Part shown: piece by piece, positions 5,891-61,580 of the stretch
How positions within the stretch are numbered: the first letter of the stretch is position 1
Layout: every line of letters begins with the position of its first letter
From: Chrysomallon squamiferum
Lineage: Eukaryota > Animalia > Mollusca
Direction of reading: 5' to 3'
Assembly: GCA_012295275.1 (NCBI GenBank)
Contig: CM022677.1
Location: forward strand, 11,470,001-11,534,000
DNA length: 64,000 bases
Position numbers and translations under genes: made by a program
The notes under the pieces: model-generated
Database searches by the model: none
Told to the model about the DNA's origin: nothing
Seen by the model: the letters and a program-made list of their open reading frames with translations, nothing else

Positions 5891-6099
5891 AAAACAACAT
5901 CGTTCAAACACTGTCACTTTTAGTCATCACTGGCCTAATATTTGTATTTATTTATTTATTTGTTTACTTATTGATTTATTGATTTGTTTATGTTTTTCTG
6001 ATGACGTCAGACAGCGGTGATGACGTCATAGACAGTTCCTTTGATTTGAAATTTTATAATGGACTGATTTGTGTCAAACAGATACATCTCATTGCTTTT

Positions 6100-7749: not shown

Positions 7750-9341
<1,592 letters not shown>

Positions 9342-13237: not shown

Positions 13238-13450
<213 letters not shown>

Positions 13451-26381: not shown

Positions 26382-26619
26382 CTGAATATTAAATATTTAA
26401 ATATTTCTTATAATGGTTTTGCTTTTAATCAATAAAAACTAGAATGTCAATTGTTTCAGTACACTTTTGATATTAAACATTTGTGTGTGTTTATGTATGT
26501 ATGTGTGTGTGTGTGTTATCGTGTTTCTGTGAGTCTGTGTGTGTGTGTGTGTGTCAGAGAGAGACATATGAAAAGTTTTATATGGTAGAGGAGTAAGAGA
26601 ACATTTGGGGTATTTTCTC

Positions 26620-36700: not shown

Positions 36701-39527
36701 ATGGCTACCACGCAGAGCTGAGAGAAGATTAGAAGAATCAGGTTTCTTCATGCTAATCTGGCAATGGGAAAGATTATTTCTTGAAAACAAAGTACTTTAC
36801 AGAAAAGTAAAGGACCCCAACTTGGCAAGTTTGCTGTTCATCTTATCTAGAAGAAATATCATCAAATACCTTCCTCTCTACAAACATAAATACAATTATA
36901 ATTAATAAATATTGTCTTAAAATGACTTAGAAAATATCCTTTTGACCTGAAAAACAGAAGTATTTGCTGATTGTGTTGAATGGTTTAATTATCTAAATCT
37001 GTTGTATTATCTACATTCAAGGATCTTCTGTCTGAAATGTTTAATTACGTGTGCACACATGGACAGGAAGACACATTTCAGTTTCTTTTATAATGGCGCC
37101 AGAAACAGTCTGGTGTAAGCACTAATGTGATTTGATTCTGTGCCTACCCACACTTCATACCACTGACTTACACATTAACTAGTGAGAAGTGTTTGATAAT
37201 CATACAGAAAACACAGCAGTCAGTTTAATTCATAGTTTACAGTTTTCTCTCTCACTTTATTCCAGTGATTAACCCCTGTGAAATAAAATACTTGATAACC
37301 AATTTGACTAGAAAATAAAATAAAATAAAATAAGGAAAGAAAATAATTAGGAAAAGCAGCTAAAAAAAATTCATAAATCGTGTTTCTCCTCGATATAATA
37401 GCTATTGAAACAGACCTATTATTTTACTAATTATTTATTTATTATTATTTTTATTATATGTAAATTAACAGAATTTAACTTTAAACACAGTAAATGTTTA
37501 AAAAAAGATAAAAAATTAAAACCTGATATCACATAATTCTAATTTTCATTTAGAATTTAACAATTTATAAAACTGTTTATTTCTTTAAAACATTATTCCA
37601 AAATCTGTAGAAATTAATGGTGGTTTAAGGCCCAGCACAGACACAATACAAGATACATTATTAATGGAGCTCAGTGTGGAATGGGAAATGCTAATGTTTC
37701 AAGGATAGAGTGAGCTCTGGGATCATTTCAGATTCTTATCTATTAAAACTAGTTGTAATTAAAACATTTATCAATTTAAATACTGATAAATTAAAAATTT
37801 AATTAACTATTAATCATATATATGTATGTTATAAGTTTTAATAATTCATGTACTTCTGTGTTATATTTAAGATGACTGAACTTCCACTGCAGTCCATGTT
37901 GTCCACAATGTTGATCATGTCAGTTCACGTGACAGAATTCTCACATTGTCTCCACGTTGTCTGGGCAGAATGTTCTCTACAGATCAAAGGTTTGAAACTG
38001 CTGGGTTTTATAGGTTTCAAAGATATAATTAAACTAATACTATATAAGAAAATAAGTAAAACAGAAAAGTTATTATTAACAAAGATCTTATATACAACAT
38101 CCTATGTTTTTGAAATTAAAAAATAAATAAATAAAAAAGATAAAAGCAAAGTGAACTCTTTATTATTAAAATCCAAGAAAAAAAGACATCCAAAATATTA
38201 TTTTGTTTATTTATTGTGAACAATCTTGTTAATTATAAAGTTTGACACAAAACTGAAGAAACTTGCTGATTATGAACACTAAAAATTATAAACTTCTGTA
38301 TTTTTAAAAAAATAACAGACAAGCAGATAATTTTCAAGAGATATCTTAATAATGATATAAGATGTAAAATGTATTTATTATGACTAAATCATTTGTAATT
38401 TTTAATACTTCAGGTAACTTTTAAATAATAATTTGCTACCTTTCCAATGATAAATGTTATAGTTAATGTTTTAAGTAAATCAATTTTATTTATCAGTGAT
38501 AAGTTTTGTTTATTATTTTTACAGGATAAACAAGCCCTTGCTGACCAGAAAAAGTTCTATCAGGCCAAGGATGACCACTTGACCAGGCTTGTAGTACAAT
38601 TCAGTGAAGAACAATCACTTCTCCGGTTTGTGGTGTTAAAAGAAATTTGTACAAACTCAGAAACTCAGATGAGTTCAATTGTTTGAAATCTGATGCTGAG
38701 TATAATGGACAGGTAATTCAGTTTACAACTAAATTTTATAAACTGTAAAATATAAATCATTTAATGCCATATGAGAATATTTTAATATTATTATTATATA
38801 TAATTTTCTTTTTTTAACTAATGGTATCTGTAGATGCAAAGAAAATGACAAAACGTGACATTGATACAGCAGTTGGGAGAAAAGGACTGTACTTTAGAAA
38901 ATGTATCTTCAAAAATTAAAACATAAATATTACTGATCTTACTTGTTGTCAATTTTTATAAAATATATTAATTTATGTACTTAATTAAAAGTAAAATGGA
39001 AGTTACTGCTTTAAGAACGAAAATATATATACAATGAAAAATAGACTGTTTAAATAAATATAACTAAACTTTATTTTATTTCAGTTAAATTAACTGTACT
39101 TATTATTGGTTGAAAACATTACTTCAGATTCAAATGATAAAATATAAAATTATAGTGGGTCTTGTTAAAATGTTTGAATGTAATATTTTTTATTTCAGTC
39201 ATCACAGAAAGCTATTTACAAGAACTGATGTCCACTGAATCTAAATGACTTGACAAGTTTGCCTCCAAGTTCTTCAGGTTTTCTGACTGTACTGAACTAA
39301 GTAAACAGAAGACAAAACATCTCCACGGTAAATATAAAGAACTGAATAACTGGATAAAATAACATTTTAAAAACATTACTTGTGTGAATCATGGACTGTT
39401 CTTATTGAAGAATTTATAATATTGTGATACTGAATTTAGATTCAAAGTTACAATGTTGTTCATGAAAGATGTGATCAGATATATTCAGTATACTGAACGT
39501 TTGGACCAGACACAGCACCAAGTACAG
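33713..39527 (+). pseudogene. Chain of small AG..GT-bounded exon-like segments of an unidentified, degraded gene
   Basis: GC-richer islands with splice signals at ~33713-33794, 34266-34350, 34700-34781, 37022-37113, 37611-37710, 37872-37989, 38525-38712, 39200-39277 and 39440-39527; several contain stops. Confidence 0.35.
34860..36830 (+). mobile_element. Ty3/Gypsy LTR-retrotransposon pol remnant (RT-RNase H), heavily degraded
   Basis: PYSSPIVIVRKTDNTIHLCVDYRWLNAKTRKDCFPLPTIEESLDAL; AFITPMDLFEYNRMQFGLSGAPATFQ; RNase H GIVLSQEQ..SSRKLE..LKWAVTEK..FTIYTDNSPLSHL. Many stops and frameshifts; no LTRs recognised. Confidence 0.92.
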
Positions 39528-39956
39528 GCAAGTCTGTGATAAAACAAGTTACTTTTTAAAAATGATTTAATATCAGAAATCCTTGATTACTTAAAAAGTA
39601 CACACTTCATATTAAAAAAAAAATGTTTGGTTGAAGGGAGATCATTTTTTTTTAAATTTAATTTATATTTTTAAATAATTTTGTTTTGAAAGAATACTGT
39701 ACTTAATAATCTAATCAAAACTTAAATAAATACCAAGAGTTCTGGTAAAAATGTACCCTATAAAACATCGTTAAAACATAAAATGGAATCAGTTGACCTA
39801 TTTAAATAACAGAGTTGAACAGACTGGCTTTTGGCTTTTTGACCAAATGTACTTTAACACCCGAAGGTGCATAGTCACGTGACATAACGTCATCTCAAAA
39901 TAAAATAAAAAGTATATAGGGTAGGGTGGAGTGAAAGACAAGACGTGATATATAGT

Positions 39957-40161
39957 CAACCTAACTCTTGTGATTTGTAAAAAAAAACAAAGATCTTCAT
40001 TACTGGCTTTTGGCTTTTTGACCAAATGTACTTTTAACCCGAAGGTGCTTAGGCTTCGCCCGAAGGAGCATAAGTTAAAGTACATTTGGTCAAAAAGCCA
40101 AAAGCCAAAAGCCAATCATGGGGAACTTTTTTTTTTTTTTACAATAACAAGAGTTTAGTTG
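39957..40161. repeat. Viral terminal palindrome 1 (imperfect arms, short core)
   Basis: ggcttttggctttttgaccaaatgtacttttaac-core-gttaaagtacatttggtcaaaaagccaaaagcc. Confidence 0.85.
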
Positions 40162-40163
40162 AA

Positions 40164-40364
40164 ATTGTAAAAAAAACAAAGTTCCTCACTACATGGCTTT
40201 TTAGCTTTTTGGCTTTTTGACCATAATGTACTTTTAACCCGAAGGTGATAACGTTCCTTCGGGCGTAGCCAGAACCCGAAGGATCATAAGTTAAAAGTAC
40301 ATTATGGTCAAAAAGCCAAAAAGCTAAAAAGCCATGTAGTGAGGAACTTTGTTTTTTTTACAAT
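40164..40364. repeat. Viral terminal palindrome 2: perfect 75-bp arms with a 51-nt core containing cccgaagg/ccttcggg mini-stems
   Basis: 40164-40238 is the exact reverse complement of 40290-40364. Confidence 0.95.
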
Positions 40365-40678
40365 AACAAGAGTAGAGTTGATAATCTATCATATCTTGCA
40401 TTTTCACCCCCACCCCTATTTTTTATTTTGAAGAGAGTATATCATTTAAACGGATATGACGTCATATCCGTTTTTTTAAATGACGTTATTTTATATGACG
40501 TCATTTCCGTTATATTGCAGACGATAATAATAGTTTATTTAAATAATTAACTGAACGAAGGTAATTAATTTTAATAAATAATTTTATTTCAAGAAATAAC
40601 TTTTAATGAACATTAATATCAACGTAACAACAATAAATCAGCACTGATTTCTTTTAATGTTTATTATTACGTTTATTT

Positions 40679-42347
40679 TTATTGTTTATAACGTTTAAAT
40701 ATGTCTATTTGTGTCTCTTGAATTGTTTCTGTGAAGTCGTCGTAGAACGGTTGAGATTCCGGTATGTAGATCTTTAATGTTTTGTTATTTGAAGGCGGTG
40801 AGGGACACACCACTTCATCCTCTTCTTCTAATTTACGTTTACTACCTTTGTTTTCATCAGATTCACCTTTGAATCGTTTCTGACTCTGTATGAAGAGATC
40901 CTGCGAAGCACAATAATTATTTTCCTGTTCTGGTTCGTCATCGTCTGACGATATCTCGATATATTTTCTTTTGTTAGGTGATGAATTGCAAAGTATACGT
41001 TGACTGTCTGACTGTCATCAAAGTTATCTCTGAAATAACTATTCCTGCCGTCGACTGTATTGTCATTTATATTGTTATTATGTTTTAGTCTAAAATATTC
41101 CCTGTCATTTTCCAAAGCTATCATCATTTCGACCTCTGTAGGTTCGAAACCCATTTTGAATAATCCTGGATGTATTAGATTATAGGCTTGCTTCAATGTA
41201 TCACTTTTCTTTAAATCATGTAGAAAATAGAGTCGGGTTTTCATTATACTGATCTGACTAGAGGTCAGTCCGTCTCCAAACGGGTTGTTAGAGTTGATCA
41301 TGCATAGATTAGCTCGACAGTAGGTAGGTGCAGTTCCTTTACGCTCACAAGTGGCTTTGCTTCCGCTTAGTAGATCTTTGTACTTGTCTATATTACTTTG
41401 CATGATACAAATCTCTTCACCTAGCACAATCTTCTTGTTACCTAGCATCTGCCAGGGGAAATTATCCTTGGCTATTTTTCCGGCGCAGTTAAGACATTCG
41501 AACATACTGCTCGATATCATTGTTTTACCGGAATCGGATTCTCCTTGTAAGTACAATCCTACTTTCTTTTTTCCTTTTCCTTTCAAAAGAGAAACAATTA
41601 ACACATACAACCATCGTTCTGGAATGCATTGTTCTACACACCAGGTGTTGAACACTTTTAAACTGTCATCTGGTGTCATGTAATTATCGATGTTATCCGA
41701 TAATGACAGAATCTGGTCGTATGCGTTCTTGTCTGCTTCCTCTTCCATGTATTTCGATCTAGCAGCCTTGAATAGCTTTTCTCCTGATGTGTTAGCTACT
41801 GCATTACATATGGCTTTAAACTCGTTACTGTTACTTCATATTTGCCGATTAACAAATTCAGTTTAACTGGATGTTTAACTATTAGTTTATACAAGAAGTC
41901 AAATGTATCAGCTGATTTGTTCGTTATCAGATGAGATGGAACTAGTTGATCCTGTTTGTTAGTATTACATACAGCAACATTGTTTTCGTCTTCAGGTATA
42001 GTTTCTAACATCACTTCCTCCATCTTAGCTGCTGCGGAAGATGTTCCTTTGCCGTGATTCACGACAGGAGATGATGTTGTACTCTTATTGGAATTGACGT
42101 CTTCCTTTCTCACAGGCTCTTTGATATCGGAAATAATTGTACTGTTACCTTTTATTGGTTGATCGTCAAAAAAATCTAACAGAACGTTCATTAAGTTTTC
42201 TTCCTCCTCTTTGGAACGTTTTTCTGTTTCGTTCCAAATGTGTAGCATCTTTTCGTCATTTGTTCCTAAATACATCTTCTCCGAATCGTTCATCAAATAC
42301 ACCATGTAGTTTTCTACAGATGTACATTGTGGATCCTTCAATTTTCA
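40679..42347 (-). pseudogene. NS1: NS1/Rep of unit A, lacking its N-terminus (HUH motif deleted), frameshifted
   Basis: YMVYLMND, Walker A GESDSGKT, Walker B VLGEE, B' KDLLSGSKATCERK, motif C CMINSN; C-terminus IQETQIDIFKRYKQ*. Confidence 0.88.
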
Positions 42348-42985
42348 CTAGTGAATGTTCGTTTAAATGTTTTTTTAATGGTAATATACCTCGGATTAGC
42401 TCCAGACGTTGTACCTCCAAATCCTTGGTATAAAACGTTATTTCCTGTAGCAGAGGCCATAGGAGCACCTTCTACAGCTTCACTTCCACCTGTATCAGTT
42501 ACTTCTTCGTTCATAATAGAATCAGGTTCCATTACGGACTCTTGATGTTGAAGATACGTTCCGTTTGAATTAGATTGTGATATCCTCGTAGATAGTTGAT
42601 TATTATTAGGAACTTTGGAGCTAGATCCTCCTCCAGGTTCGATGTTTTGTCGTTTCATGCCTTGTCGTGTTGTTGATTGATGTTCGTTTTGTTCTGATGT
42701 TTTTCCTGTTTGTTCGTCTTCTGGGTATATAGGCGTATTAAAAGGGTCCTCTTCGTCCGAATCCTCAATATGGTTATAGTCTTCCCGAATATTTTGTATT
42801 GCCGAATAGAAATCTTGATTAGGAATTTGTAAATTTGGATATTGACGTCGTATCTGTAGCCATCTATTTTGACGCTGATCCACCGGCACGTTTATCTCTG
42901 ATAATATAGCCAACGCTTTAGCTTTGGCTATGGCCCAAAGTCTAGTAACTTCCTTCTTGTTCAATATACGTTTCCATTTATTCAT
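42348..42985 (-). pseudogene. Capsid-like VP N-terminal fragment, unit A (truncated at KRTFTS by an internal deletion)
   Basis: Near-identical to the N-terminal ~210 aa of the unit B VP (48268 onward). Confidence 0.75.
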
Positions 42986-43345
42986 GAAATTGGACTAGTA
43001 GTACGCATATAATACACGTATTCGTCCTCTTGTGCTTCTAATTCTTGTCTCTCTGTAGGTGAAACGTCGTTATCTATTGATTTATCTTCTGGTTTCACTA
43101 AATCCGTAAATTGATGCACAGCCTCTTGTATTTGACTTAGTATAGTTGGCAATACCTTCTACAGAAGACTCCACTATACTTTGTCCAATAGCAGTCGCTT
43201 GGTTTATATATATACTATCAGCTCCAACAATTTCAGCTATAGCTGGGGCAGTCGAATCTATTATGGCTGTCGTAGCAAGTTCCACGGATGTATCAAATGC
43301 AAATTCTATGAGTTCAGCAGCTATTATACCCAAAGCTGTGAACAT
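42982..43345 (-). CDS. Small acidic ORF X (~120 aa), unit A, one frameshift in an A-run (~43138)
   Basis: MFTALGIIAAELIEFAFDTSVELAT...EDEYVYYMRTTSPIS*; conserved in unit B and in the 53489-53768 fragment. Confidence 0.7.
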
Positions 43346-43453
43346 CCTAATCCATCAAACGATACCAAACAAATGAAGCATTTACAGGTAAAACATATAC
43401 ATATATATAATTTCAATCACGTGATATATCATGTGACGTACGTATTAGGTCAC

Positions 43454-43823
43454 ATGATATACTCTCTTCAAAATAAAAAATAGGGGTGGGGGGTGAAAAT
43501 GCAAGATATGATAGATTATCAACTCTACTCTTGTTATTGTAAAAAAAAAAAGAGTTCCTCATGAATGGCTTTTAGCTTTCTGGCTTTTTGACCATAATGT
43601 ACTTTTAACCCGAAGGTGATAACGTTCCTTCTGGCGTAGCCAGAACCCGAAGGATCATAAGTTAAAAGTACATTATGGTCAAAAAGCCAAAAAGCTAAAA
43701 AGCCATGTAGTGAGGAACTTTTTTTTTTTTACAATAACAAGAGTTAGGTTGAAATCTATCAGGTCATTTTATTCTTCACCCCCACCCTAATTTTTTTATT
43801 TTGAAGAGTATGACGTCATATCC
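43454..43823. repeat. A/B junction: unit A ITR + hairpin core + unit B ITR
   Basis: 43454-43609 is the near-perfect reverse complement of 40290-40445; 43661-43823 is the near-perfect reverse complement of 48706-48870. Confidence 0.92.
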
Positions 43824-44054
43824 TATATTGACATAATATCCTGTATTAACGTCATTTCCTTTATATTTTAGCTGACGATATTTTTATTAATAATATAGTT
43901 TATTAAATTATATAATATTTTTAATAAACAAATAACAAAAATAATTAATGTTTAATTATATTTTATTAACAGTAATTAACAATAACGTAATCATTTATTT
44001 TATTATAATATTTTAATAATATTTTAAAGAGTAAATAAATGTTTATTTAATTAA

Positions 44055-46179
44055 TTAATTAGCAGATTTATATTTTTTCAAAATGTCCATTTGAGTTTCC
44101 TGTATTGTTTCTGTAAACTGATCATAAAATGACGGAGTTTCAGGTATGTAGAATTTGTATTTCTTCTGTTCAGGTTGTTCAGGTTCGGATCCTACAGTTA
44201 TGTATTGTCCGTCTATCTGTTCGTCCAAATTTCGTTTGATTCCTTTTTGCTCTTGTTTTTCTACATTATTTTCCTGTTGGCTGGTTATGAACAAATCTTG
44301 AGAAGGATTATATTTTTCTACTTCCTCTTTTTCTTCATCTTTACTTGATATTTCAATATACTCTATTTTATCTTCTGATTGCTTATCATTGGATTATTTG
44401 GTGCAATGATGGATTGACTGTCATCGAAATTGTCTCTGAAGTAACTATTACGTCCTTCGAAAGTGTTGTCTTCAACGTTATTGTTATGTTTCATAGAGAA
44501 ATATTCCCTGTCGTTTTCTAATGCAATTGTCATTTCGTCGTCTGTCGGTTCAAATCCTATGGTGAATAATTTAGGATGAATTAAATTGTAAGCATGTTTA
44601 AGAACATCACTTTTTTTCAAGTCCCGAAGAAAGTAAAGTCTAGTCTTCATAATGCTTATTTGGCTTGTTGTTAATCCATCTCCAAAACGATTATTCGAAT
44701 TAATCATGCAAAGATTAGCTCTGCAGTAACAAGGAGTAGTACCTTTTCTTTCGCAAGTAGCTTTACTGCCACTGAGTAAATCCTTGTATTTGTCTATATT
44801 TGTCTGATTAATCGATATTTCTTCACCTAAAACGATTCGAAAAATGTTCCCTAACATCTGCACAACTTAAACACTCAAACATACTGCTTGAGATCATAGT
44901 CTTACCGGAGTCAGACTCTCCTTGCAAATATACACCTACTTTCTTTTTACCTTTACCTTTTAGTAAAGCTACATCAAAACATATAACCATCTTTCGGGAA
45001 TTTGTTGTTCTACACACCAGCTGTTAAATATTTTAAGACTGTCCTCGGGTGTCATATAATGTTCTATATCATTGTTCAAATCGGTTATTTGATCATAAGC
45101 ATTCTTATCTGATTGTTCTTCCAAAAATTTAGATCTGGCCGCTTTAAATAACTTCTCTCCTGAAGTATTAGCAACAGCATTGCATATCGCTTTGAATTCA
45201 TTGGAGGTACTGTCATATTTGCTAATAAGCATGTTAAGCTTATTAACTTCCGGATTTTTTACAATTAGCTTGTAAAAAAAAGTCAAACGTGTCAGCTGAT
45301 TTATTGGTTATCAAGTGAGATGGAACGGTTTCATCCTTATTATTATTGTCTGTTGTTTTATTATCTTCCATCATTATTTCTAACACCTGTTCTTCTATTT
45401 TTGCATCGGCTGAGGTTGTACCTGTTCCATGTTTAATTGTCTTGTTGCTAGTTGTTGGCTGTGGTGTAGCTTTAACATCATCTTTTCGAACAGGTTCCTT
45501 AATGGCAGGTACAATAGAATCGTTGTTTGCAACATCTTGATTGTCAAAGAAGTCTAACAGTACGTTCATTAGTTCTTCCTCATTACTTCTGATACGTTTA
45601 TCTGTATCATTCCATAATTTCAGCATCCGGTCGTCGTTTGTACCCAGATACATTTTTTCTTTGTCATTCATTAGGTAAGTCATGTAGTTCTCCAATGATG
45701 TAGTTTGAGGTTCTTTGATCTGTCTGATTTTAATGTATCCTTTTTCATTCAATATAGCTGTGTGCAGTCTCCTGTATTGACGGTCCTGTGATGGCGTTTT
45801 CATATTATTTTTCCAAATAACATGTACATGTGATCCATATGTAGGATAATTTTTATCCAATGTACAGTCTTTTTGATGATAAACTACAAGATTTTTCCAA
45901 TTTTTGTTCCTTAAGAAGGCTTTCAATTCAGTTATGACGCGATCTTGACCTTTAGACAGGAACTCGTAATTTGGTGTCGCCCAGTGATCTACTGTCTTAT
46001 CCAAAATGTCTTGTGGGTCTATCTGATAACTCTTGATGTAATTTTTTCCCTGTGTGAAAACATACTTTCCATCTTTATCTTTTACTAAACTTCTTGGAAC
46101 CAGAAACTTTGGATGAACCATGTCGTAGTTTGTATGTCCAATAATAGTTCTCTTCTGCGAGTTCCATATATCGATCCAT
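44055..46179 (-). pseudogene. NS1: NS1/Rep of unit B, nearly full length (~700 codons), with frameshifts and small deletions
   Basis: Start MDRYMELAEENYY at 46179; HUH GSHVHVIW; YMTYLMND; GESDSGKT; VLGEE; CMINSN; a ~30-bp deletion removes GKIAKDNFPW at ~44860. Confidence 0.9.
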
Positions 46180-46209
46180 TGTTTCTTTTGTTTTAATATA
46201 TATATTTTA

Positions 46210-48268
46210 TATGTACCATGCACAGGCCATACTAATCGACGTCTAGCTTTACGTTTATTCCAGTTGTCCCATACAGGACAATATACTCTCATTTTCCATT
46301 GTTTTTCAATTCTGTCTTTATATTGTTTACCAGTTTCATCTAAAAACTGATCTTGTTCAGTATGTTTTACATTGTCTTTATTTCCTGTTGGTACAGTGTC
46401 GTTACCTTTAAATATAAGGCCTTGCATAGGACCAGGACATCCACCTAATCCTATAGGTATATATTTCGGACACATACCGGTTCTGACTAGAAATTCAACC
46501 TCACTATAATAAGTTATTTGTATATTAGCATGATAGTTAAAGAATAACGTGGCCCCACTAGTAGTTTTTTCCGACATCTGGATATAGACCAATTAAGAAT
46601 ATCGGAGGTCTATTACACTGAAAAGTCCTTCGATGTGATCCATCCATACATGTATTAACGTTCGGATCATCCATATCGTTGGACGCTACACCATTTTTAG
46701 ATAGTTTGGTACCTCCGTCATCTACCAAAGATGGAGCACCTAGATCTTTAGATGCTTTGTTCTGGTAACATCCTTTATAATTTACATTTCTATATTGGTG
46801 ATTAAAATATGTAGTAATTGCAGTTCCCATAGGATGTGTTGATGTATTAGTTACCGTAATTTCATGTGTAGGCCACACTTCTAAATTTGCTTTATTTTCA
46901 TTGCTGCATTGATATCTATCTTTTTTAATATTTGCTGTCATTTGAGTAAAATTTAAAGTCTGACTGCTTTCTCCCGGAAATATAACCAATGGAGAGTCTT
47001 TACAAGTATAATCTAATCCAAACCCACCTGCACTAATAACTGTTTCCCGATAACCATCATGCTTTTTCATGTCATATATATAATTTGGTGTTTCAGCTGT
47101 AAAATGCATATTATCTCCTGTCTGATCCCAAGCGCTATTCAATAATTGCATAGCTACATCACTTGGAAGATATAATTTACGATCTGGTTGTACTGGTATA
47201 GCTCTTTGAGAGGTTACATCCATGCATTCCTCGTCTTGGAATAGATTATTATGTGACAAGTTTAAATTTTTTTTCTGGTAATCCATAATCATTATAGATA
47301 TCTGTAAACGTCCAAATTCTTGCATTTGGTGGTGCCATAACTGGTACTTCGTTGGGATCGGATTTGGTATTATTTAAAACATGTATCATCATATTATTAA
47401 TATTAAATCCAATTTTTTTTATCTTATACCCAACAAATTTATCTGGTAAATTCCAATCATCAGCTTTCGTACTGGCTTGTTTGTACCAATATGGTATAAT
47501 GTGTCCTCCATGATTAAATACCAATTCACAAACATTAGGATCACCTATTGCTTTTTTCCAATTAGTGGAATCTGATCCGTTATCTAATATATTCATTTTA
47601 GCTTTTCTAGCTTTAGTAAAATGTATAACACTAGTAAATGTTCGTTTGAATGTCTTTTTAATAGTTATATATCTAGGATTAGCTCCTTTAGTGGTTCCTC
47701 CAAATCCTTGATACAAAACGTTGTTACCTGTAGCTGAAGCCATGGGAGCACCTTCAACAGCTTCGCTTCCCCCTGTATCGGTAACTTCTTCATTCATAAT
47801 AGAATCAGGTTCCATTACAGACTCTTGTGGTTGAAGGTATGTTCCTTTAGAATTAGATTGATCTAGTACATCTTGTGATATTCTATTAGATAATTGATTG
47901 TTATTAGGCAGTTTAGAATTGGAACCTCCTGCTGGTTCATTTGTTTGTCGCTTCATTGCTTGTTTTGTTTCGGTTGTTGTTGATCCTTGTCTTGACTCTT
48001 CTTCTGAGTATATAGGCGTATTAAAAGGGTCTTCTTCGTCCGAATCCTCAATATGGTTATTGTTTTCCCGAAGACCTTGTATTGCCGTATAGAAATTTTG
48101 ATTAGGAATTTGTAAATTTGGATACTGACGTCGTATCTGTAACCACCTCTTTTGACGCTGATCCACCGGCACATTTAAATCTGATAATATAGCAAATGCT
48201 TTAGCTTTAGCTATCGCCCAAAGTCTTGTCACTTCTTTCTTGTTTAACACACGTTTTCCTTTATTCAT
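46210..48268 (-). pseudogene. Capsid-like VP of unit B (~690 codons), two homopolymer frameshifts, last ~16 codons deleted
   Basis: Disordered acidic N-terminus, Gly-rich GFGGTT stretch, then KTFKRTF..GHIIPYW..GYKIKKIGFNINN, resembling the first beta-strands of parvoviral jelly-roll capsids. It has an Asn/Thr-rich body and basic C-terminal RKARRR, and lies between ITRs next to NS1. Confidence 0.72.
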
Positions 48269-48629
48269 GAAATAGGACTGGTTATACGCATATAATTCAC
48301 GTATTCGTCCTCTTCTTGTTCTAATTCTTCTCTCTCAGATATAGAAATGTTATTATCCAATTTTTTGTCGTCTGGTTGCAAGAAATCACTGAATTGATGT
48401 ACGGCTTCTTCTATTTGACTTTTAGTATATGTAGCAATACCTTCAACAGAAGATTCAACAATACTTTGTCCAATAGCTGTAGTGGCTCTAAATATATACT
48501 ATCTGCTCCAACAATTTCAGCAATAGCTGGTACTGTAGAATCTATTATAGCTGATGTCGCTAATTCAACAGATGTATCAAAAGCAAATTCTATTATTTCA
48601 GTAGCTATAATTCCCAAAGCTGTAAACAT
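48265..48629 (-). CDS. Small acidic ORF X, unit B, one frameshift (~48490)
   Basis: MFTALGIIATEIIEFAFDTSVELATSAIIDST...EEDEYVNYMRITSPIS*; its stop overlaps the VP ATG (ATGA). Confidence 0.7.
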
Positions 48630-48705
48630 CCTAACACATCATCAACAAACATAAAAATGAAAAATATATATATATATAGTTATATTATATATTATATATT
48701 ATTAC

Positions 48706-49203
48706 GGATATGGCGTCATACTCTTCAAAATAAAAAAAATTAGGGTGGGGGGTGAAGAATAAAATGACCTGATAGATTTCAACCTAACTCTTGTTATTGT
48801 AAAAAAAACAAAGTTCCTCATGATCTGGCTTTTTGGCTTTTTGGCTTTTTGGCCATAAGGTACTTTTAGCCCGAAGGTGATAACGTTCCTTCGGGCGTAG
48901 CCAGAACCCGAATGATCATAAGTTAAAAGTACATTATGGTCAAAAAGCCAAAAAGCTAAAAAGCCATGTAGTGAGGAACTTTGTTTTTTTTAAAATAACA
49001 AGAGTAGAGTTGATAATACTTTTAACTTAAGCTCCTTCGGGCGAAGCCTAAGCTCCTTCGGCTTAAAAGTACATTTGGTCAAAAAGCCAAAAAGCTAAAA
49101 GCCATTCATGAGGAACTTTGTTTGTTTTACAATAACAAGAGTAGAGTTGATAATCTATCATATCTTGCATTTTCACACCCCCACCCCATTTTTGTTTGAA
49201 GAG
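48706..49203. repeat. B/C junction: unit B ITR, long-core hairpin, partial second hairpin with inverted short core, unit C ITR
   Basis: Palindromic arms at 48795-49000; 49020-49070 is the reverse complement of the core at 40030-40080. Confidence 0.9.
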
Positions 49204-49318
49204 AAAATACAAACAAATTATAACTTTTAAACATATTATTTATTAATTATAAATACTTTATATTTAAACATATTTTTATTAACTCTGAACGTTGTATATT
49301 TAAACATATTTTTATTAA

Positions 49319-51501
49319 CTATGAACAATTTATATGTGTCATATATTTGTATTTTTTTAAAATGTCAAATACTTCTTTACTTTCGTCGTTATCGTCGTTG
49401 TCTTGAGTTTCTTCAATTGTCATTATCATCTTTATTGCACTTTATTTAGTTTCTGGTATGCAAATTTTTTTTTTTTTATTACAAGGTGAAGGACATATTA
49501 CTTCATCATCCGAACAGTCATCATCTTCAAATTTACGTTTCTTGCTATTGTCATATTCTTGATCACTTTGAATAGTTTTCAAGCTCTTTTGACTTTGTGT
49601 AAATAAAACTTGTGATGGATTATAACTGCTGTTTTGTTGATCTTCATCATCATCTGATATTTCAATGTAGAACCGTTTTCTAGATATGGAGTTGGATAAT
49701 TCTGGTTGTAATGTTTGTGAAATATCATCAAAATTATCTCTGAAATAACTCATTTTGCCATCTATTGTATTATCAGACACATTGTTGTTTGTTTTCAATC
49801 TGAAATAATCTCTATCGTTCTCTAACGCAATCATCATCTCATCCTCAGATGGTTCAAATCCAAGTTTAAACAAGTCAGGATGTAACAAATTATAACATTG
49901 TTTCAAAACATCATTTCTTTTCAAATCTTGGATAAAATATAGTCTTGTTTTCATTATGCTTATTTGGCTGGATGTTAAGCCGTCTCCAAATCTATTGTTG
50001 GAATTAAGCATACATAAGTTTGCTCTGCAATACGTTGGTGTAGTGTCTTTCCGTTCGCAGGTAGCCTTGCTACCGCTAAGCAAGTCTTTATATTTGTCAA
50101 TGTTACTTTGAGTGATGGAAATCTCCTCTCCTAATACTATTTTTTTATTTCCTAACATTTGCCAAGGAAAATTATCCTTGGCAATTTTTCCAGAACAATT
50201 TAAACATTCAAACATATGCTGGATATCATAGTTTTTCCGGAGTCTGATTCCCCCTGAATATATAATCCAACTTTTTTCTTCCCATTGCCTTTTAACAGAG
50301 AAATGAGGAGAACATATAACCATCTTTCCGGAATTGCTTGCTCTACACACCAACTATTAAATATTTTCAAACTGTCTTCGGGTGTCATATAGTTATCTAT
50401 TACGTTCTGGTAGATTTATGATCTGTTCGTATGCATTTTTTTCAGACTCTTCATTCATATACTTAGCTCTCGCTGCTTTGAATAATTTCTCACCGGATGT
50501 GTTGGCTACGGCACTGCAAATGGCTTTGAATTCATTACTGGTTGTATCATATTTACTTATCAGTAAATTTAATTTATTAACGTCTGGATGTTTCAGAATC
50601 AATTTGTAAAAAAAATCAAATGTCTCTGCTGATTTGTTAGCAATAAGATGTGAAGGCACTGGTTTATTTGTATCAATGTCATTTTCATTTTCGTTCATGT
50701 CAATATTTGTTGTTCTATTTTTGATGCAGCCGACGTTTCACCTTGTCCATGTTTAATGTTATTTAATGTGAGATCGGTTTCCTTACTTGCATCTTCTTTT
50801 CTTATCGGCTCTTTAAGCTGACAAATTATGGTATCTTTCTCTGTAATGTCTTTATCATCGAAAAAGTCAAGAAGAACATTCATAAGTTCTTCTTGATCTT
50901 TTGCAGTATTAATCAGTTGGTTCCATTGATATAACGTCTTTTCATCATTAGTTCCTAAGAACATTTTTTCTTTATCATTCATGAGATACATCATGTAATT
51001 ATTGAGTGATTTATCTACTGGAGACTTTAGTTTTCTTATCTTAATATACCCCTTCTCTGTCAATACAGCTCTGTGAAGACGTCTATACTGCCTGTCTTGA
51101 GAAGGTGTCTTCATGTTTGTTTTCCATATGAGATGTATATGGGATCCATACGTCGGATAATTGCTTTCTATATTGCAGTCTTTCTGATGGTATACCACTA
51201 ACATTTTCCAATTTTTATTTCGTAGAAATGACTTTAATTCTGTTATTACACGATCTTGTCCTTTTGCTAAATACTCATATTATGGTGTAGCCCAGTGATC
51301 AACTGTTTTATCCAAAATATCCTGAACATCCATTTGGTAACTTTTAATGTAGTTCTTTCCTTGCGCATATTCATATTTGCCATCCTTGTCTTTTACTAGT
51401 GAACGTGGTACTAGGTACTTTGGGTGGATCATATCATATCCAACATGTCCAATGACAACACTGTAATAGTTGTCATCTATCGTTTGTATAAATCTATCCA
51501 T
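49319..51501 (-). pseudogene. NS1: NS1/Rep of unit C, full length with in-frame stops and frameshifts
   Basis: MDRFIQTIDDNYYSVVIGH; HUH GSHIHLIW; YMMYLMND; GESDSGKT; VLGEE; CMLNSN; stops at ~51280, ~50695 and ~49442. Confidence 0.9.
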
Positions 51502-51578
51502 TCTTTTATCGTTTTTTAATTCTTTTCAGATAATATTGAATTAAATATTAATGAATTCAACCTGAAATGATAACAAGC

Positions 51579-51662
51579 AACTGAAATATTTTTGAACGTC
51601 TCTTTTATTTATAACGATATTAACATGACGTCATATTAATGACGTAATAATGTACTACGTGA
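51579..51662 (-). promoter_or_regulatory. Internal NS1 promoter (CRE/ATF-like sites, TATA, initiator)
   Basis: TATAAATA at 51613-51606; TCAGTT Inr with its A at 51582 (31 nt downstream); TGACGTCA at 51627-51634. Confidence 0.7.
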
Positions 51663-51736
51663 CAAACTGAACATAATATTATTAAAGACTGTTTACTGTA
51701 TTCATACGCTAATTAATTAAATAGTTCCAAATTAAA

Positions 51737-51890
51737 TTATATCGGATATGACCAATCTACTGTGTTGTCTGCAATAGGTACAGTTCTATCACCGTATGCA
51801 CCGTGTATAGGCCAAATAAATCGTCTTCTTGGTTTACACGTATTCCAATTATCCCAGATAGGAGCATATATTCTCATTTTCCATGTTTTT
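51737..51890 (-). pseudogene. VP C-terminal fragment with natural stop (..WPIHGAYGDRTVPIADNTVDWSYPI*)
   Basis: Homologous to the VP ends at 46210-46300 and 52339-52490. Confidence 0.75.
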
Positions 51891-52005
51891 TCGCAAGGGC
51901 TCTTGCTGTAAGATACTGTGGATGGACGAGATCATAGTCCTTGGGACCTATGATTACTGAGTAGTAATTCATCGTTTCGTTGTTGATCTCTGTATGTTGA
52001 TCCAT
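51891..52005 (-). pseudogene. NS1: NS1 N-terminal fragment of another genotype (MDQHTEINNETMNYYSVIIGPKDYDLVHPQYLTARALAK)
   Basis: Aligns to the NS1 starts of units B and C. Confidence 0.75.
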
Positions 52006-52076
52006 TATTCAATTAGTGCTTTTATATAAAGTATTTTAGTATTCGGAAGATCTTTACATTTCAATTAATGACGAAC

Positions 52077-52156
52077 GACTGAGAACGTTTGAAAGTCAGC
52101 TTTATTTATAGCAAATTAATAGTACGTCATCAAAGTGACGTAAAAACACGTGACGT
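52077..52156 (-). promoter_or_regulatory. Second copy of the internal NS1 promoter
   Basis: TATAAATAAA at 52110-52101; TCAGTC Inr with its A at 52080 (30 nt downstream); upstream acgtca/tgacgt and cacgtg motifs. Confidence 0.7.
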
Positions 52157-52338
52157 TAAGTATAACATAAAATACTTTTAACTGTATTAATACGCAGCGT
52201 AACAATAAATAGTTTATTAAATAATTAATTTATTTATTTTTTAAATTTAATTATTCTATATTATTATTTAATTTTAAATTATTAGTTAACAATAAATACA
52301 TAAATACAGCTGTTGATAACTATATATTTAACAAGTAA

Positions 52339-52614
52339 CTAAATAGGATATGACCAATCAGTTGTATTTGCAGTGATAGGTACACTTCTATCACCATAGG
52401 CACCATGTATAGGCCAAATAATTCGTCTTCTAGGTTTTCGTCTAACCCATTTATCCCATATTGGTGCATATATTGTTAATTGCCATGCTTTCTTTATTCT
52501 ATCATAATACTGTATAGCCGTTTCATCTAAAAATTGATCTTGTTCGGTATGTTTAACATTATCTTTTTTACCCTTTACGGTATTACTCAGCGTGAAAATT
52601 CCTCTCATAATGGC
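52339..52614 (-). pseudogene. VP C-terminal fragment with natural stop (third genotype)
   Basis: KDNVKHTEQDQFLDET..WDKWVRRKPRRRIIWPIHGAYGDRSVPITANTTDWSYPI*. Confidence 0.75.
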
Positions 52615-53017
52615 ATTCGTAATTTTCTTATCTTGATGTACCCTTTTTCTGTTAATACTGCTATGTAGCCTTCTGTATTGTCGATCTTGGATAGGTGTCT
52701 TCATACATGTTTTCCATAATATATGTATATGACTGCCATACGTTGGAATGTTCGTTTCCATATCACATGATTTGTCGTGATACACAACTAACACTTTCCA
52801 GTTTTTGTTTCGGAGCAACGCCTTCACTTCAGTGACTATTCTATCTTGTTCTTTTTGCAAAAATTCTGTTTGTGGTGAGCTCCAATGATCGACGGTACGA
52901 TCAAGTAGATCTTGATGATCCGTTGCCAAGGAATTTATATAATTTTTGCCACTGGCATAAACATACTTTGCCATCTTTGTCCTTTGCTAAAGCTCTTGCA
53001 GGTATATAGTTCGGATG
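52615..53017 (-). pseudogene. NS1: NS1 HUH-domain fragment (further genotype) inserted between VP fragments
   Basis: HPNYIPARALAKDKDGKY..TVDHW..LRNKNWKVLVVYH..GSHIHILW..QDRQYRRLH. Confidence 0.8.
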
Positions 53018-53768
53018 TCACTTCATTCCCTGATACTGAATCGGGATTCATCACACTTTCTTCTAGTTGTAATTATGCTCCTTTCCCACCAGTATTTTCT
53101 ACAACAGCTTCAGATACAGTTGTAGATAACTGTTGATTTTCTTTACGTTTCTTATTTGGTGGTGGATTAATTGGTTCTTCTTTGTGTCTTTTCATTGTTT
53201 CTTTTGTTTGTCTTTCGTGGTCTTCTGAGAATAAAGGCGAATAAAAAGGGTCCTGTTCTTTCGAATCTTCAGTATTGTTATATTCTTGCCAAAGATCATG
53301 TATTGCCGAATACAAATCTGAATTCGGTATTTGCAAATTTCGATATCTACGTCGAATCTATAACCAGTTTTCTTGAGCTTGATCCTTAGACACATTTAAC
53401 TGTTGTAATATATTTAATACTTTAGATTATGCTATTGCCCAAAGACGAGTAACTTCCTTTTTATCCAATATACGTTTTCCTTTGTGCATTAAAACGATTA
53501 ATATATAAGTAACGTTCTCTTCTTCCTCTTCTTCTTTCTGCTGTTCGTTATCTTTGCTTATAATATTTTTGTCAGATAAACTAGTTCCTTGCACAGCGTA
53601 AGGAAATTCTTCAACTGCTTTTTTTATCTGAGACTTAGTATAATCTGCAATAGATTCTGTTGAATATTCAACAACCGTTTGTGCTAATCCAGTTGCTTCG
53701 TCGAGAAATATATTATCAGCGCCAATGATTTCTGCTACTGCTGGTGCTGTTGATTCTAATATTGCTTG
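53018..53768 (-). pseudogene. Partial ORF X (53489-53768) plus VP N-terminal fragment (53018-53489) of a diverged genotype
   Basis: ILESTAPAVAEIIGADNIF..IADYTKSQ; MHKGKRILDKKEVTRLWAIA; LQIPNSDLYSAI..EQDPFYSPLF. Confidence 0.75.
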
Positions 53769-56700
53769 TGGTGTAAAAAAAACAAAGTTACACATACTGG
53801 CTTTTGGCTTTTTGACCAAATGCACTTTAACACCCGAAGGAGCATTTGGGATATTTCCTCATCACACAAATACGTTAACACACCACAGCCTAGATCTCTA
53901 CCTGCTGTGTCTTCTGTTTATCTTACATTTATTGTTTAGATGTTATAATTAATAATTGATATTTATTAAAATAAATATAATTGTTTTCATTTTCTTTTGT
54001 TGCCTTGTTTTTCATTATTAATGCATTTTCAAGATAAATTTGAATGAACTGTTACGAATGCAATAAATATCTCTACCAAAAACTTTGAACATGTTTCTGT
54101 AACAGTAATCTAAATATTCCAGTGAAGAAATTTGTGAATGTTGTTTATAATTTTCATTATTAGTTTATTAATCTTGAACTCGGTCGTCCCAGAAAAACAT
54201 GCTGTGTTGGTTAAACAAGTGCACATTTCAGCATCAAACCTATCTCTGAAAATATATCCTTTTTCACAGAACATGATTATTGTAAACACTCGTGTGAAAC
54301 AACTGTGATTTCTTCAAGTGAGGATAATGTAAATTCTCTTAACCCACTTGATCGCTGACTGTAAATCATAAAACAAAAGACCTGAATTGATATAAGGAAC
54401 ATGTTTTTATTACTTTGCGTACATTTCAATAAAAATATTGAGTCCTTTTTTCACATTCGCAGTTTACAAAAGGCACTTTACTTACACATTCCTATTCACA
54501 AAATAGATTTAAATACAAAATAATATTAAAAAGAACCCTTGCTTTTAGAATTAATGTTTGGTCTTTATTCCGAAACCTGAAAAACGCCTTCAGCTAACAT
54601 TACGGCCGTTTATACGACAAATCTGAAATTTACCAGTCCTCTGATCAAAAACAAATCAAGGCCTCAGAAGAAGGAACTATTTTATTATAAACGACAATAA
54701 ATATTAATATTATTATGTTTTCCCCCAAATTAATGTCCTCCTTATATATTGAAAAATTATGGTCTTTAATAATAAGTTATTTTATTATTAACAATAATAA
54801 GACTATACAGAAACGCGTGAAGTGCCAGATGAATATTATATTTATTATTGTGTTGATATTACTGAAAATTAATTGTGCACCTTTCAGTGTCACAATGTGA
54901 TGCTTTGTTTTATGACCACAGTAAAATGACATTCCGCGACACAATTTACATCTCTCTACATGAAATTACATGATTAATCTAAAATTCAAAATTATCAAAT
55001 TATGTAATTAAGAATATATCAGATTATTTTTTTAAAACTGAGAAATGTAAGTTAATCTAGAATGAAATTCCATGTTTATTCAATTATATAACTGATAATC
55101 TCTAATTAATGTAATTTTAATTTCTCATATTGCGTTTTATTTTGTTATCGATGAGTAACATTATCAATGTAAACAGCGATATTCTTTAGTTAAATGTGGT
55201 TTTATAAAAGTTCAATTTATTATTATTATTATTATTATTATCATTATTATATACTTTTTTAAAAAGAAATATTTAGATTTTATCTCGACAGAAACAATAC
55301 ACTAAGAATAAATCTGATTTCTCTGATAACTTTACGAGGCCTAATAAAAAATTCGAAGTAATTTTTATATCCGCACTCAGAACAGTTCTAATGAAACTAA
55401 TAGATAGCGTCAGACATATATAGGAAGCTTCCGTTTTTACAGAAAAATGAAAACAAAATAAAAAATAAAAATATTAAGATGTTATTATTGTTGTTGTTGT
55501 TGTTATTTAGCTGTTGACAAAGGCAGGACCTGTGACAAATATGGTGTCTGCTTCACTGACTCATTGATACTTACTGGTGGAGTGGTTATTTTAATATCTA
55601 ATAATAATAAGGTATAATAAGAAATGTAAAATATATTACACTATACAACTTGCGCTGATGTACACCTTGTAATGAAAAAAATAAACTTCGCATAATAAAA
55701 TGACATGTTCACCTTCTTTTTCTCATCTAATCAGTACAAACTGTCGTGATTCCAGGGAATTAACTCAGATATTTTTCAATATAACCTGATATAAATATAT
55801 ACGATCATTAATAAAATATGAGATTAATATTTCTCAACATAATTAACCTTCAAACTGTAAATATCACTGCTCATAATTAATTTTCATCTTTTTTTTTATA
55901 AGTAATTAAACCGCTTATTTTCATAACGCCATGTAGAATTATTATTTATAACTGTTAGTAATGTCTACTATATTAACTGTGGTTATTTTCTGTAGTGTAC
56001 ATAATATTTAAGTTCCACGTACAGTAAAATTACACCTTTCTATTATATGATTTCGAATTAGCAAAATAAAATATCACGTTACTTTTACTAAAACGGACAT
56101 TTCGAAGCGGTATCTGAATTTAGTTGCAGAATGTTCTCGATATATTTTGACGTCACATACAAAGTTACTGTTATTTTAAAAAATTACAACACGGAAGTTC
56201 CATCTATATTTTTGAATGTTCACAGTGAAATCATACCTGTAATTTTCAGTGTTTTGTAGTATAACTAACTGAATATCATCTCATTCACGAAGGATAGTTG
56301 AGAAATTTAGAAATAAAGAGGGTTTCCAAATTCCTAATTGCTCTGTTACTATCAAAATCAGCATTGGTTTTTAGTTGCACCTCAAATGGTATTGATAATT
56401 AAATATTGATTTTCTTTTTGTAGACAGGTGTGTATTGAAAAGCTGAGGTTTCTCTGTTAAATATTAGCAAATAATTTATTATATATGAAGTGATATTCAT
56501 CTTGATATTTCTAGTTGAGAAGTATAGTGAATATTCAGGAATAAAATATCGCAACCAGATAAAAATGTTATTTCATTAGCAACTGTGATATTAATGTGAT
56601 ATTTCTCAACGTAATTTATGTTGTGTTTACTATATCATGTCAGAATAATTATTTACTCAGCAAAAGTAACGTAGTGTTTTTGTTAAGACAATGTTATTAT

Positions 56701-59934: not shown

Positions 59935-60999
59935 TGTAATCATAATCACAAAAGATATTAATACACTATACAGTCTCCATGCACAAAACATTACTAAGAT
60001 GATTCTTTTCTGAAGTAGGTGTCTTATTGTTTGACTGATGTATAAGATACAACGTGAACTAAAACAGGATACAACTGAAATCTGTCATGTTGACGTATGT
60101 CTTCAACACAGTGAGATCTCCTAAAAATGAAAAAAGATAAACATTCTATTATGAAATTAAGTGGAGGCATTGTAATAGTTTATGCATCATGTCATTATTT
60201 TTAAGTTATATACTTTAAAAGATAATTATATTTTTGAAACTACTATTACATATCTGCTAAATATAATTACATAATAACTTAAATGAAAAGCAAAATATAA
60301 GTGATTACTCTGTCGATTGATCAATAAAAATTCAGCTAAATTACTCAAAAAAATAAAAATTACACTTGAGTCTTGTGACAAGATTCTACATTGTATTGTT
60401 TAATAATTCATTTTCGATTATCTGCTCTTGAGAACGTTTCAAAAAGCAGACGACGAACATTTTACAAACTAAATTACAAACATGTACTTCAAAGTATATA
60501 AAGAATACAAAAAAAAAAAAAAAAAAACATTTCAAGAAAGTAATATTCTACCATTATATAAAGGTATACCAGTATATATAAAAAAATCAACTGAAACGAA
60601 TATAGCTGTATAATGAGTAACAAACGTAAATGTATAGGTATCTTCCAGGAATATCAATTAACAATAAACAATATACGAATCTATTATTGATAAATAACTA
60701 AAATATAAACAATAAAGATAAATACAGTGGACGCTGTCAAAACCGGATGATTCATTGAGACCAACGTGATATACCGTTTTAGACAGAGTGCAGATTTCTA
60801 AAGATTAAAATAACATAAAACTGGAATATTTTTTTTTTATTACAAATGTTAATGGTCTATCAGTTTTCAAAGGATAAAACAGTCTGTCATTGATCGACTG
60901 CGTTTTTTTTTGGGGGGGGTTGTGCTTTTTTTAGTTAGGTTTTTTTTTTTCGTATTTCTTTGTCTGTCATGGCCTCCAAGTTTAACATTAATTGCAGAA

Positions 61000-61580
61000 T
61001 CTCTTCTTTAGCAGGCTTAAGAATTAGAAGCGGATTTTTGATATTGTTATGGTAGCGACATATCAAACGATGTCGCTGTCGTACTTTAATAACGTCTTCA
61101 CCACGACAGAGAGCATCGAAAGTTGTTTTTTCTTTAACTCTGCCGTTTTTTCTCTTTTCTTTCCTAAGTTTTGATATACTTGAATACTTTTTTCTTCTGT
61201 TCGGAGCACATTCTAGTCCACGAGCTAACGTTAACTGTTCATTTGTCAAATTTAAAACTTGCTCTATCTGTCCCGCTAATTCTCTACTGTGTATGTCATA
61301 GTCATGAAGTTCTAACCGAGATACGTTCTGAATTTTTTCTGTTCTTACTTTCTCGAGACTTATCGTCCTCCAGATATGCACATATTTGTATTTTTTCAGT
61401 TTGTATGCAAGGCAACCTAATTGATAACAGTCTTCTGCTGATAATCTCTGTATATATCGTTCATATATAAAACCGTCTGTTAATCTTGTAGCATTTAATT
61501 TGTACGTGTCTTGAAGTCGAAACAGAGCTGCAGCGACCCCTTCTAAATCTTCGTAACTTGGAAGATGTTCACGGATTTCT
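61000..61580 (-). pseudogene. P4HA: Prolyl 4-hydroxylase alpha subunit-like fragment, intronless and degraded
   Basis: LPSYEDLEGVAAALFRLQDTY..LSAEDCYQLG..AY and FDALCRGE..RQRHRLICRYHNNIKNPLLILKPAKEEIL match P4HA N-terminal/substrate-binding motifs. The catalytic 2OG-Fe(II) domain is absent. Confidence 0.8.

Follow-up and report, generated by a model that had tools for sequence, protein, structure and literature searches.

Broken parvovirus-like genomes with the capsid gene ahead of NS1 in an inherited head-to-tail array of Chrysomallon squamiferum

Organization of the locus

The stretch analyzed here (the window) comprises 64,000 nucleotides (nt) of the mollusc Chrysomallon squamiferum (assembly GCA_012295275.1, contig CM022677.1, positions 11,470,001 to 11,534,000), with a background of AT-rich and microsatellite-rich animal DNA. 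It contains broken parvovirus-like genomes that are arrayed head to tail and inherited with the host DNA, and in these the capsid gene (VP) lies ahead of the replicase gene NS1 on one strand between matching hairpin ends. Self-comparison placed the array at 39804-53845, where three broken gene-bearing units, A (40290-43616), B (43662-48868) and C (49063-53845), are accompanied by empty hairpin modules; a first-pass annotation of the same DNA had given narrower limits, 43661-52614, for the parvovirus-like sequence. All units lie on the minus strand and are 68-80% identical to each other. Read on that strand, each consists of hairpin, open reading frame (ORF) X, VP, NS1 and hairpin, and in all three the start of ORF X adjoins one arm and the end of NS1 the other (Table 1). 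The earlier description of unit B as X, VP and NS1 between its own matched inverted terminal repeats is borne out (ATG of X at 48629, of VP at 48268 and of NS1 near 46179; end of NS1 at 44055).

Unit B is the fullest, with X, VP in three pieces and NS1; the 3' end of VP and most of the VP-NS1 gap are deleted, and VP and NS1 run together as one ORF (45243-46592). The middle of unit A is deleted, with the 5' third of VP fused to mid-NS1. In the mosaic unit C, the sequence twice jumps back from NS1 to the VP ends of other genotypes, as a result of which the intact succession of VP stop, gap and NS1 ATG is present twice (51737-51501 and 52339-52005). The VP ends of these two junctions are 73% identical in protein. 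Survival of the junction in two different genotypes, as claimed by the first-pass annotation, can be upheld, although both copies belong to unit C and the junction of unit B itself is partly deleted. The two gaps are alignable yet diverged, and both keep TATA words and words resembling a cAMP response element (CRE). Beside the hairpin arm of unit A, the predicted counterpart of the putative X and VP promoter (43355-43470, motif scan only) contains CRE-like and E-box-like words. Unit B spans 5207 nt with its junction partly deleted; together with the missing gap this gives an estimated full-length genome of about 5.4-5.5 kb, close to the reconstructed ~5.5 kb genome proposed before, although the figure derives from the span of unit B and has neither an intact unit nor a reconstructed sequence behind it. 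Both the span and the estimate fit the size expected of Parvoviridae (about 4-6 kb).

The inverted arms that flank unit B are 89% identical over 140 nt, the arms being about 150 nt overall, and the palindrome at junction J2 gave a fold z of -17.7, which none of 200 shuffles equalled. Over their inner 62 nt the arms agree closely within a unit (97% between the arms of B, 98% between those of A), whereas the arms that face each other across J2 are only 85% identical. Two tips (40029-40084 and 49017-49073) share an asymmetric core in which 32 of 34 positions are identical as reverse complements and 12 on the same strand, and are thus the flip and flop forms of the hairpin. Flip-flop ends are described as a mark of homotelomeric parvoviruses (PMC12297876). 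The arms also contain an iterated A-tract motif, which is a plausible candidate for the NS1 binding site. The tips together with the outer NS1-side arms at 40225-40305, 43596-43676 and 48857-48937 are 97-99% identical, while the units they join are 68-80% identical; these three tips exceed the flip/flop pair in length by about 16 nt and look like a hybrid of both. Their near identity suggests a single donor for the junction, or else gene conversion.

Both host borders of the array are located within hairpin arms. Head-to-tail arrays with junctions inside the arms are also known from the integration of adeno-associated virus (AAV). No target-site duplication was seen at the two borders, and the flanks appear unrelated to each other. 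The right flank (53840-55996) is a host repeat with a second, ~80% identical copy at 26599-28004. The left flank (39300-39800) is a host repeat of high sequencing depth, and two contigs of sequencing run X1 join NS1 (41087 and 41583) to position 39645; this repeat may lie beside further copies of the element as well.

Table 1. Features of the array in the order of the window (positions count from its first letter)
Feature	Positions	Strand	Basis and remarks
Left boundary, truncated hairpin arm joined to host repeat	39804..39874	.	90% direct repeat of right arm 53777-53845; arm ends after iterated motif
Junction J1, two stacked hairpin modules, gene-free between	39875..40435	.	Tips near 40029-40084 and 40235-40295; last arm is the NS1-side arm of unit A
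Unit A NS1, 5' part deleted, superfamily 3 (SF3) helicase	40679..42344	-	Frame breaks near 41835 and 41010; Pfam PF01057 E 1.4e-7; tblastn with P0011
Unit A VP, 5' third only	42345..42985	-	Relatives' profile positions 1-235 of 700, E 2.7e-15; deletion joins it to mid-NS1
Unit A ORF X, ~120 codons	42982..43345	-	One frame break; stop overlaps VP start
Junction J2, full palindrome	43464..43808	.	Left arm, X side of unit A; right arm, NS1 side of unit B
Unit B NS1, nearly full length	44055..46179	-	Several frame breaks; SF3 helicase behind first third; tblastn with P0011 and P0006; alignments
Unit B VP-NS1 gap remnant, partly deleted	46180..46208	-	Three-frame view, blastn limits; ~30 AT-rich bases and NS1 ATG near 46179
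Unit B VP, a single gene broken into three successive pieces, 3' end deleted	46209..48268	-	Breaks near 47260 and 46570; ATG 48268
Unit B ORF X	48265..48629	-	One frame break; ATG 48629; stop overlaps VP start
Putative promoter for X and VP, TATA-like, beside hairpin arm	48630..48725	-	Motif scan, prediction only
Junction J3, X-side arm of unit B, tip, partial arm, second tip (49017-49073), NS1-side arm of unit C	48722..49204	.	
Unit C NS1 from ATG 51501	49340..51501	-	Frame breaks; Pfam PF01057 E 5e-4 on 49445-50353; tblastn
Intact VP-NS1 gap 1, AT-rich	51502..51736	-	CRE-like words ~20 nt ahead of TATA box; fold z 0.16, no hairpin
VP 3' end and stop codon, genotype 1	51737..51892	-	77% to VP end of unit B
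NS1 start of another genotype, interrupted by jump back into VP	51893..52005	-	tblastn
Intact VP-NS1 gap 2	52006..52338	-	Motif order as in gap 1, AATAAA words upstream; fold z -0.87 (52003-52300), no hairpin
VP 3' end and stop codon, genotype 2	52339..52610	-	75% to VP of unit B
NS1 nuclease-region fragment of a further genotype	52611..53017	-	tblastn P0011 42-177; 69% protein identity to unit C NS1
Unit C X 3' part and VP 5' part, deleted on both sides	53018..53766	-	
Right boundary, truncated arm, tip joined to host repeat	53772..53845	.	Self-comparison, arm alignment

Capsid protein, NS1 and ORF X

A full HMMER scan with VP yielded 45 proteins at E<=0.001, mostly of 540-820 amino acids (aa) and 24-38% identical to the window protein, with one short relative at 52%. 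One of the 45, P0060, is an artefact of tandem repeats and was discarded. A profile of 34 relatives, from which the window sequence had been excluded, covers the three VP pieces of unit B in order (positions 1-358, 361-604 and 609-648 of 700). In a tree of 35 rows, with nine short matches left out, the window VP falls on a long branch within a starred clade of 27 rows that also contains P0044. A word-index search among proteins of 633-2000 aa found no VP relative, which reflects its limited sensitivity, since HMMER found 45. Of ten VP-relative clusters checked, nine are found on Logan contigs of 3.3-7.2 kb, sizes that fit virus genomes.

Of 33 VP relatives scanned against Pfam, 31 carry no family at all. 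P0058 (984 aa) is the only one of the 33 with an N-terminal parvoviral phospholipase A2 (PLA2) domain (PF08398, E 4.5e-11), and its presence in an otherwise unannotated family would mean gain or loss of PLA2 within that family. The VP1 PLA2 of most Parvovirinae and Densovirinae was absent from the window as far as Pfam matches on X and the VP pieces can tell. The natural relative P0044, which is 35% identical to the core of the window VP, was folded with an alignment and gave a model of pLDDT 67.8 with long beta strands. All 45 PDB rows listed for this model are parvovirus capsid entries, with Zophobas morio black wasting virus as the best match (E 1.1e-10, TM 0.35), and its BFVD matches are led by Parvoviridae and ambidensovirus proteins (best E 7.6e-14). 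On the model of P0044, and not on the window's own VP, the VP family has the jelly-roll fold of parvovirus capsids, which agrees with the earlier naming of the gene as a capsid gene. Matches of VP in the ESM Atlas were weak and below the recognition threshold, the top rows being capsid-fragment clusters with PF00740 at rank 5; the second VP piece had no usable match there.

NS1 contains an SF3 helicase homologous to that of parvovirus NS1. The Parvo_NS1 family (PF01057) was matched with a score of 31.3 bits against a cut-off of 20 (E 1.4e-7) and was detected in nine of the 12 members of the NS1 alignment, and a profile of four full-length relatives had AAV Rep40/68 and B19 NS1 as its top PDB matches (E 1e-4). 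In the first third of NS1, HxH-type and tyrosine motifs are conserved in the window copies and in the relatives, as judged from the alignments; neither Pfam nor the PDB profile search gave a match to this N-terminal region. P0001 and six more relatives found by profile are 56-72% identical in the helicase region. Full-length relatives are P0011 (724 aa), P0014 (698 aa) and P0006 (680 aa, on a Logan contig of 2.6 kb). Most NS1 relatives (P0002-P0018) are located on ENA contigs of 60,905, 297,455 and 452,437 nt, with several whole or broken copies on each, and the VP relative P0019 lies on an ENA contig of 559,615 nt. These long contigs probably represent similar arrays in other animal DNA.

ORF X, of about 120 codons, occurs in all units; its first half is hydrophobic and its pN/pS (ratio of nonsynonymous to synonymous differences) between A and B is 0.14. 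Pfam, the only library scanned with it, gave no match. As a small ORF in front of the main VP ORF, it is reminiscent of the split VP cassettes of ambisense densoviruses. We take X to resemble the N-termini of polyomavirus VP2, a likeness for which Pfam gives no support, and our guess would be that, in place of the missing PLA2, it acts on membranes as a minor entry protein.

Origin of the capsid-first order

The selection set consisted of 15 in-frame pairs between units out of 17, two wrong-frame rows (the X piece of unit C) having been left out, and pN/pS ranged from 0.09 to 0.37 in 14 of the 15. Synonymous sites of NS1 are saturated between units, whereas VP and X of units A and B are closer (dS ~0.65), a contrast that would be expected from cassette recombination between genotypes. 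By these substitution patterns, the units are separate recombinant genotypes that diverged while functional under purifying selection.

Contigs from public sequencing runs were aligned at 80% likeness on 50700-52760, and 15 of 19 joints were covered. Divergent contigs of runs X3 and X4 (studies P2 and P3) carry three sets of joints that lead from an NS1 start to a VP end in the order of the window, namely 51312 to 51780 (X4, depth 31.2, matching a 2689-nt record), 51278 to 52382 (X4 and X3), and 51113 to 51604 together with 51652 to 52386 (X4, at equal depth and presumably on a single contig). Additional joints from the gap to VP ends were found in X1, X3, X4 and the RNA run X7, and no change of strand was seen among 15 of the 19 joints. 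Because the units diverged under purifying selection and the divergent contigs share their order, we conclude that the VP-first order predates insertion. We consider it quite probable that the source lineage itself had its genes in this order with respect to the hairpins, and that the order is not the product of shuffling in the host.

Nine public runs of one organism, from three studies, contain part of 43661-48870, and contigs of four runs mapped on 39300-54400 covered every one of 30 bins in all four. Since runs from three studies carry the locus, the element is inherited DNA rather than a one-off contig; X1 may be the source sample, so that P2 and P3 are the independent studies. Contigs that differ from the window are deeper than those identical to it (242-273 versus 89-120 in X1 and 234 versus 29-33 in X4), the ratio being 2.5-3x in X1 and 7-12x in X4 and X3 and varying between samples, and the hairpin bins reach depths of 823-2505. 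This suggests a multi-copy family that varies between samples, depth not being equal to copy count. The RNA runs X6 and X7 contain a small share of the element; the X7 contigs of 1.8-2.3 kb are less than 95% alike to the window and are not informative on expression.

Several observations weigh against a native VP-first parvovirus. The short sides of the contig joints measure 26-49 nt at 80% likeness, at which false joints are possible and each joint is weak alone. All evidence on order comes from one host species, and among the database relatives listed there is no VP-NS1 fusion that could show gene order. No unit is complete, and the intact junction lies outside unit B. Searches for a free genome with NS1 and VP queries (window NS1, a VP piece, P0001, P0032 and the family alignments) gave no match in viral contigs, and neither did the VP piece and one of the alignments in metagenomes. 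One VP pair, involving a broken piece, had a pN/pS of 0.84. TM-scores of the P0044 model reach only 0.26-0.43, the core of the window VP folded alone gave no usable fold (pLDDT 29), and the window VP had no match in Pfam and no meaningful PDB sequence or profile match. The HUH endonuclease domain of NS1 is likely from its motifs, a profile match to the region being absent.

The VP-first order might instead reflect how a circle was opened, if the source genome was circular, with one palindromic origin between the end of NS1 and the start of X, and belonged to the large, apparently circular parvoviruses of Buck et al. (2024). Their preprint (bioRxiv 10.1101/2024.03.25.586562), in the text available, reports parvoviruses of more than 5 kb with a candidate helical capsid protein, most of them apparently circular; X would be such a small extra ORF, VP relatives occur on Logan contigs up to 7.2 kb, and head-to-tail units with unit-matched arms are expected of a circle opened at a palindrome. 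The first-pass annotation had held that the unit-matched repeats argue against a simple circular permutation. They do exclude a permuted ordinary parvovirus. In a permuted or circularized one the hairpin would sit between the VP end and the NS start, and here it is on the other side. The argument is nevertheless weaker than stated, since opening a circle at its single palindromic origin would leave an identical pattern; the matched arms fit such a circle as well as a linear genome. Against the circle, the flip and flop tips point to hairpin transfer at free ends, and the viruses of the preprint appear to be without terminal repeats, in contrast to the arms of ~150 nt found here; even on a circle the origin would lie between the NS1 end and the VP start, unlike in a circularized ordinary parvovirus. 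We therefore regard a circular source as unlikely, though worth keeping in mind. Somewhat less credit still is due to a mobile element, in which NS1 made by an intact or episomal copy would duplicate units bounded by hairpins and insert them where hairpins already reside, so that arrays build up. Such an element would account for the greater, sample-dependent depth of the window-differing contigs, for junction tips and outer arms far more alike than the units, for several NS1 relatives on each long ENA contig and for the related contigs in RNA run X7; however, depth is not copy number, the borders lack a target-site duplication and have unrelated-looking flanks, the units are distinct recombinant genotypes rather than near-identical copies, and the RNA contigs may be carry-over of DNA.

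An ordinary NS-first or ambisense parvovirus, shuffled after insertion and then multiplied by the host, is disfavored and very improbable. Deletions throughout the array and the two backward jumps speak for it, and jumbled parvoviral insertions have reportedly been found in shrimp. Yet between the VP-first copies synonymous sites are saturated and selection is purifying, the two homologous gaps have diverged with their promoter-like words kept, no hairpin lies between VP and NS1 (fold z 0.16 and -0.87), the ends of X, VP and NS1 abut the arms in all three units, and further divergent copies agree in order. That the array is an artefact of wrongly joined related repeats can hardly be believed: the whole stretch is spanned by no single contig and the host has many related copies, but contigs from other studies cross the odd junctions with few differences (X4 at 50165-51656 and 52050-53164, X3 at 51658-52093).

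In a native VP-first genome, X and VP would be transcribed from a promoter just inside one hairpin arm, the overlap of X stop and VP start leading to coupled translation, leaky scanning or splicing. Transcription of NS1 would start from a second promoter, of the same CRE-like and TATA design, within the 235-335 nt gap. The NS1 protein would recognize the iterated A-tracts of the arms, introduce a nick and use hairpin transfer to resolve the ends into flip and flop forms. The array was likely produced by recombination among at least four related genotypes, through their hairpin arms and by template jumps, either ahead of or in the course of successive insertions at a single site. As a hypothesis, the VP-first layout would follow from a single event in an ambisense ancestor that inverted the NS cassette together with its promoter.

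Relation to known systems and neighboring features

The element works like a homotelomeric parvovirus and has the NS1 helicase, hairpin ends, capsid fold and genome size of the family, with a likely HUH domain, but lacks the canonical layout; it is a candidate member by its NS1, can be placed in no described genus and is known here from integrated copies. Palindromic hairpin ends, with flip and flop forms, surround the coding region as in Parvoviridae, but VP precedes NS1 on one strand, in contrast to the usual arrangement, in which NS leads and VP either follows it or is encoded by the other strand; the opposite-strand NS and VP of ambisense Densovirinae are likewise absent. Published accounts assign NS to the left and VP to the right of every parvovirus genome, in the same or opposite sense (PMC11357303), and the six subfamilies comprise monosense, ambisense and bipartite genomes, with even the atypical megaparvoviruses keeping NS1 before VP (PMC13426907). 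No VP-first genome appears in the accessible portions of PMC9896142, PMC6950620, PMC5013282 and PMC12714852. A literature search that did not reach most subscription journals, judged by titles and the openings of abstracts, found no described genus with VP-first or, in the terms of the first-pass annotation, ITR-VP-NS-ITR order. Together with the PF01057 match of NS1 and the fold of the VP family, this largely supports the initial view of a parvovirus-related lineage with an organization outside the described genera.

Homotelomeric monosense parvoviruses (Dependoparvovirus including AAV, and Erythroparvovirus) share with the element the NS1 helicase, identical end arms with flip and flop, and genes on one strand, whereas the element differs by a capsid gene upstream of NS1, a separate ORF X, the absence of PLA2 and no detectable VP sequence similarity. 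The ambisense densoviruses (Zophobas morio black wasting virus, PDB 8TJE, and BFVD ambidensoviruses) supply the best structural matches of the VP family, by a small margin over AAV and bocavirus, and in them too the VP cassette begins beside a hairpin arm; the element departs from them in having NS1 on the VP strand and an internal promoter-like gap, with no NS2 or NS3 seen and no PLA2. Megaparvoviruses (SwaBA-MePV-1 and endogenous viral elements of beetles) are described as homotelomeric, unplaced, partly known from endogenous elements and equipped with extra 5' ORFs ahead of NS1, but their order is PLA2 ORF, unknown ORF, NS1 and VP, with the capsid behind NS1 (PMC13426907). The preprint of Buck et al. 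(2024) describes large, apparently circular parvoviruses with an extra helical protein. These 'Cah-bearing' parvoviruses, compared by text description only, share NS1, VP, a small extra helical protein, a size above 5 kb and an origin from SRA assemblies, but are said to be without terminal repeats, and their gene order is not stated in the text; they may already include the group described here, which would then have been deposited before.

Bidnaviridae encode a protein-primed PolB, for which neither room nor an ORF was found between the arms (ORFs and Pfam). A capsid-family gene under purifying selection is present in every unit, which sets the element apart from HUH transposons that lack a capsid gene. 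Helitron and Replitron are such capsid-less HUH transposons. Tentatively, and with more doubt than for gene order itself, the element might stand for a subfamily-level lineage of animal viruses, with about 30 capsid clusters in public sequencing data, in which VP came to lie before the replicase on one strand when the NS cassette of an ambisense ancestor was inverted, PLA2 is replaced by a small entry protein encoded on its own, and insertion into the lineage's own resident hairpins builds germline arrays of mixed genotypes.

If correct, the VP-first order would represent a third parvovirus layout beside the NS-first monosense and the ambisense ones, with cassette inversion as a one-step link between ambisense and monosense genomes, and with the capsid promoter at the hairpin one would have to ask what keeps NS1 expression early and capsid expression late. 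About 30 unannotated clusters of 650-820 residue proteins would gain an assigned fold and virus family, and the mixed-genotype array would be a natural record of hairpin-mediated recombination and germline insertion.

Elsewhere in the window, two inverted arms of 193 nt (9121-9313 and 13257-13449; 94% identical and partly microsatellite) lie 3.9 kb apart and enclose a 32-nt tandem array (11616-12302), together a possible non-autonomous element. A degenerate telomere-like hexamer array is located at 14821-15457. Pfam matches further revealed the N-terminal region of a prolyl 4-hydroxylase alpha subunit in an apparently intronless open stretch of 214 codons (60938-61579, minus strand), possibly a retrocopy, and exons for BTB and PHR domains that belong to a BTBD-type host gene (4110-5979, plus strand).

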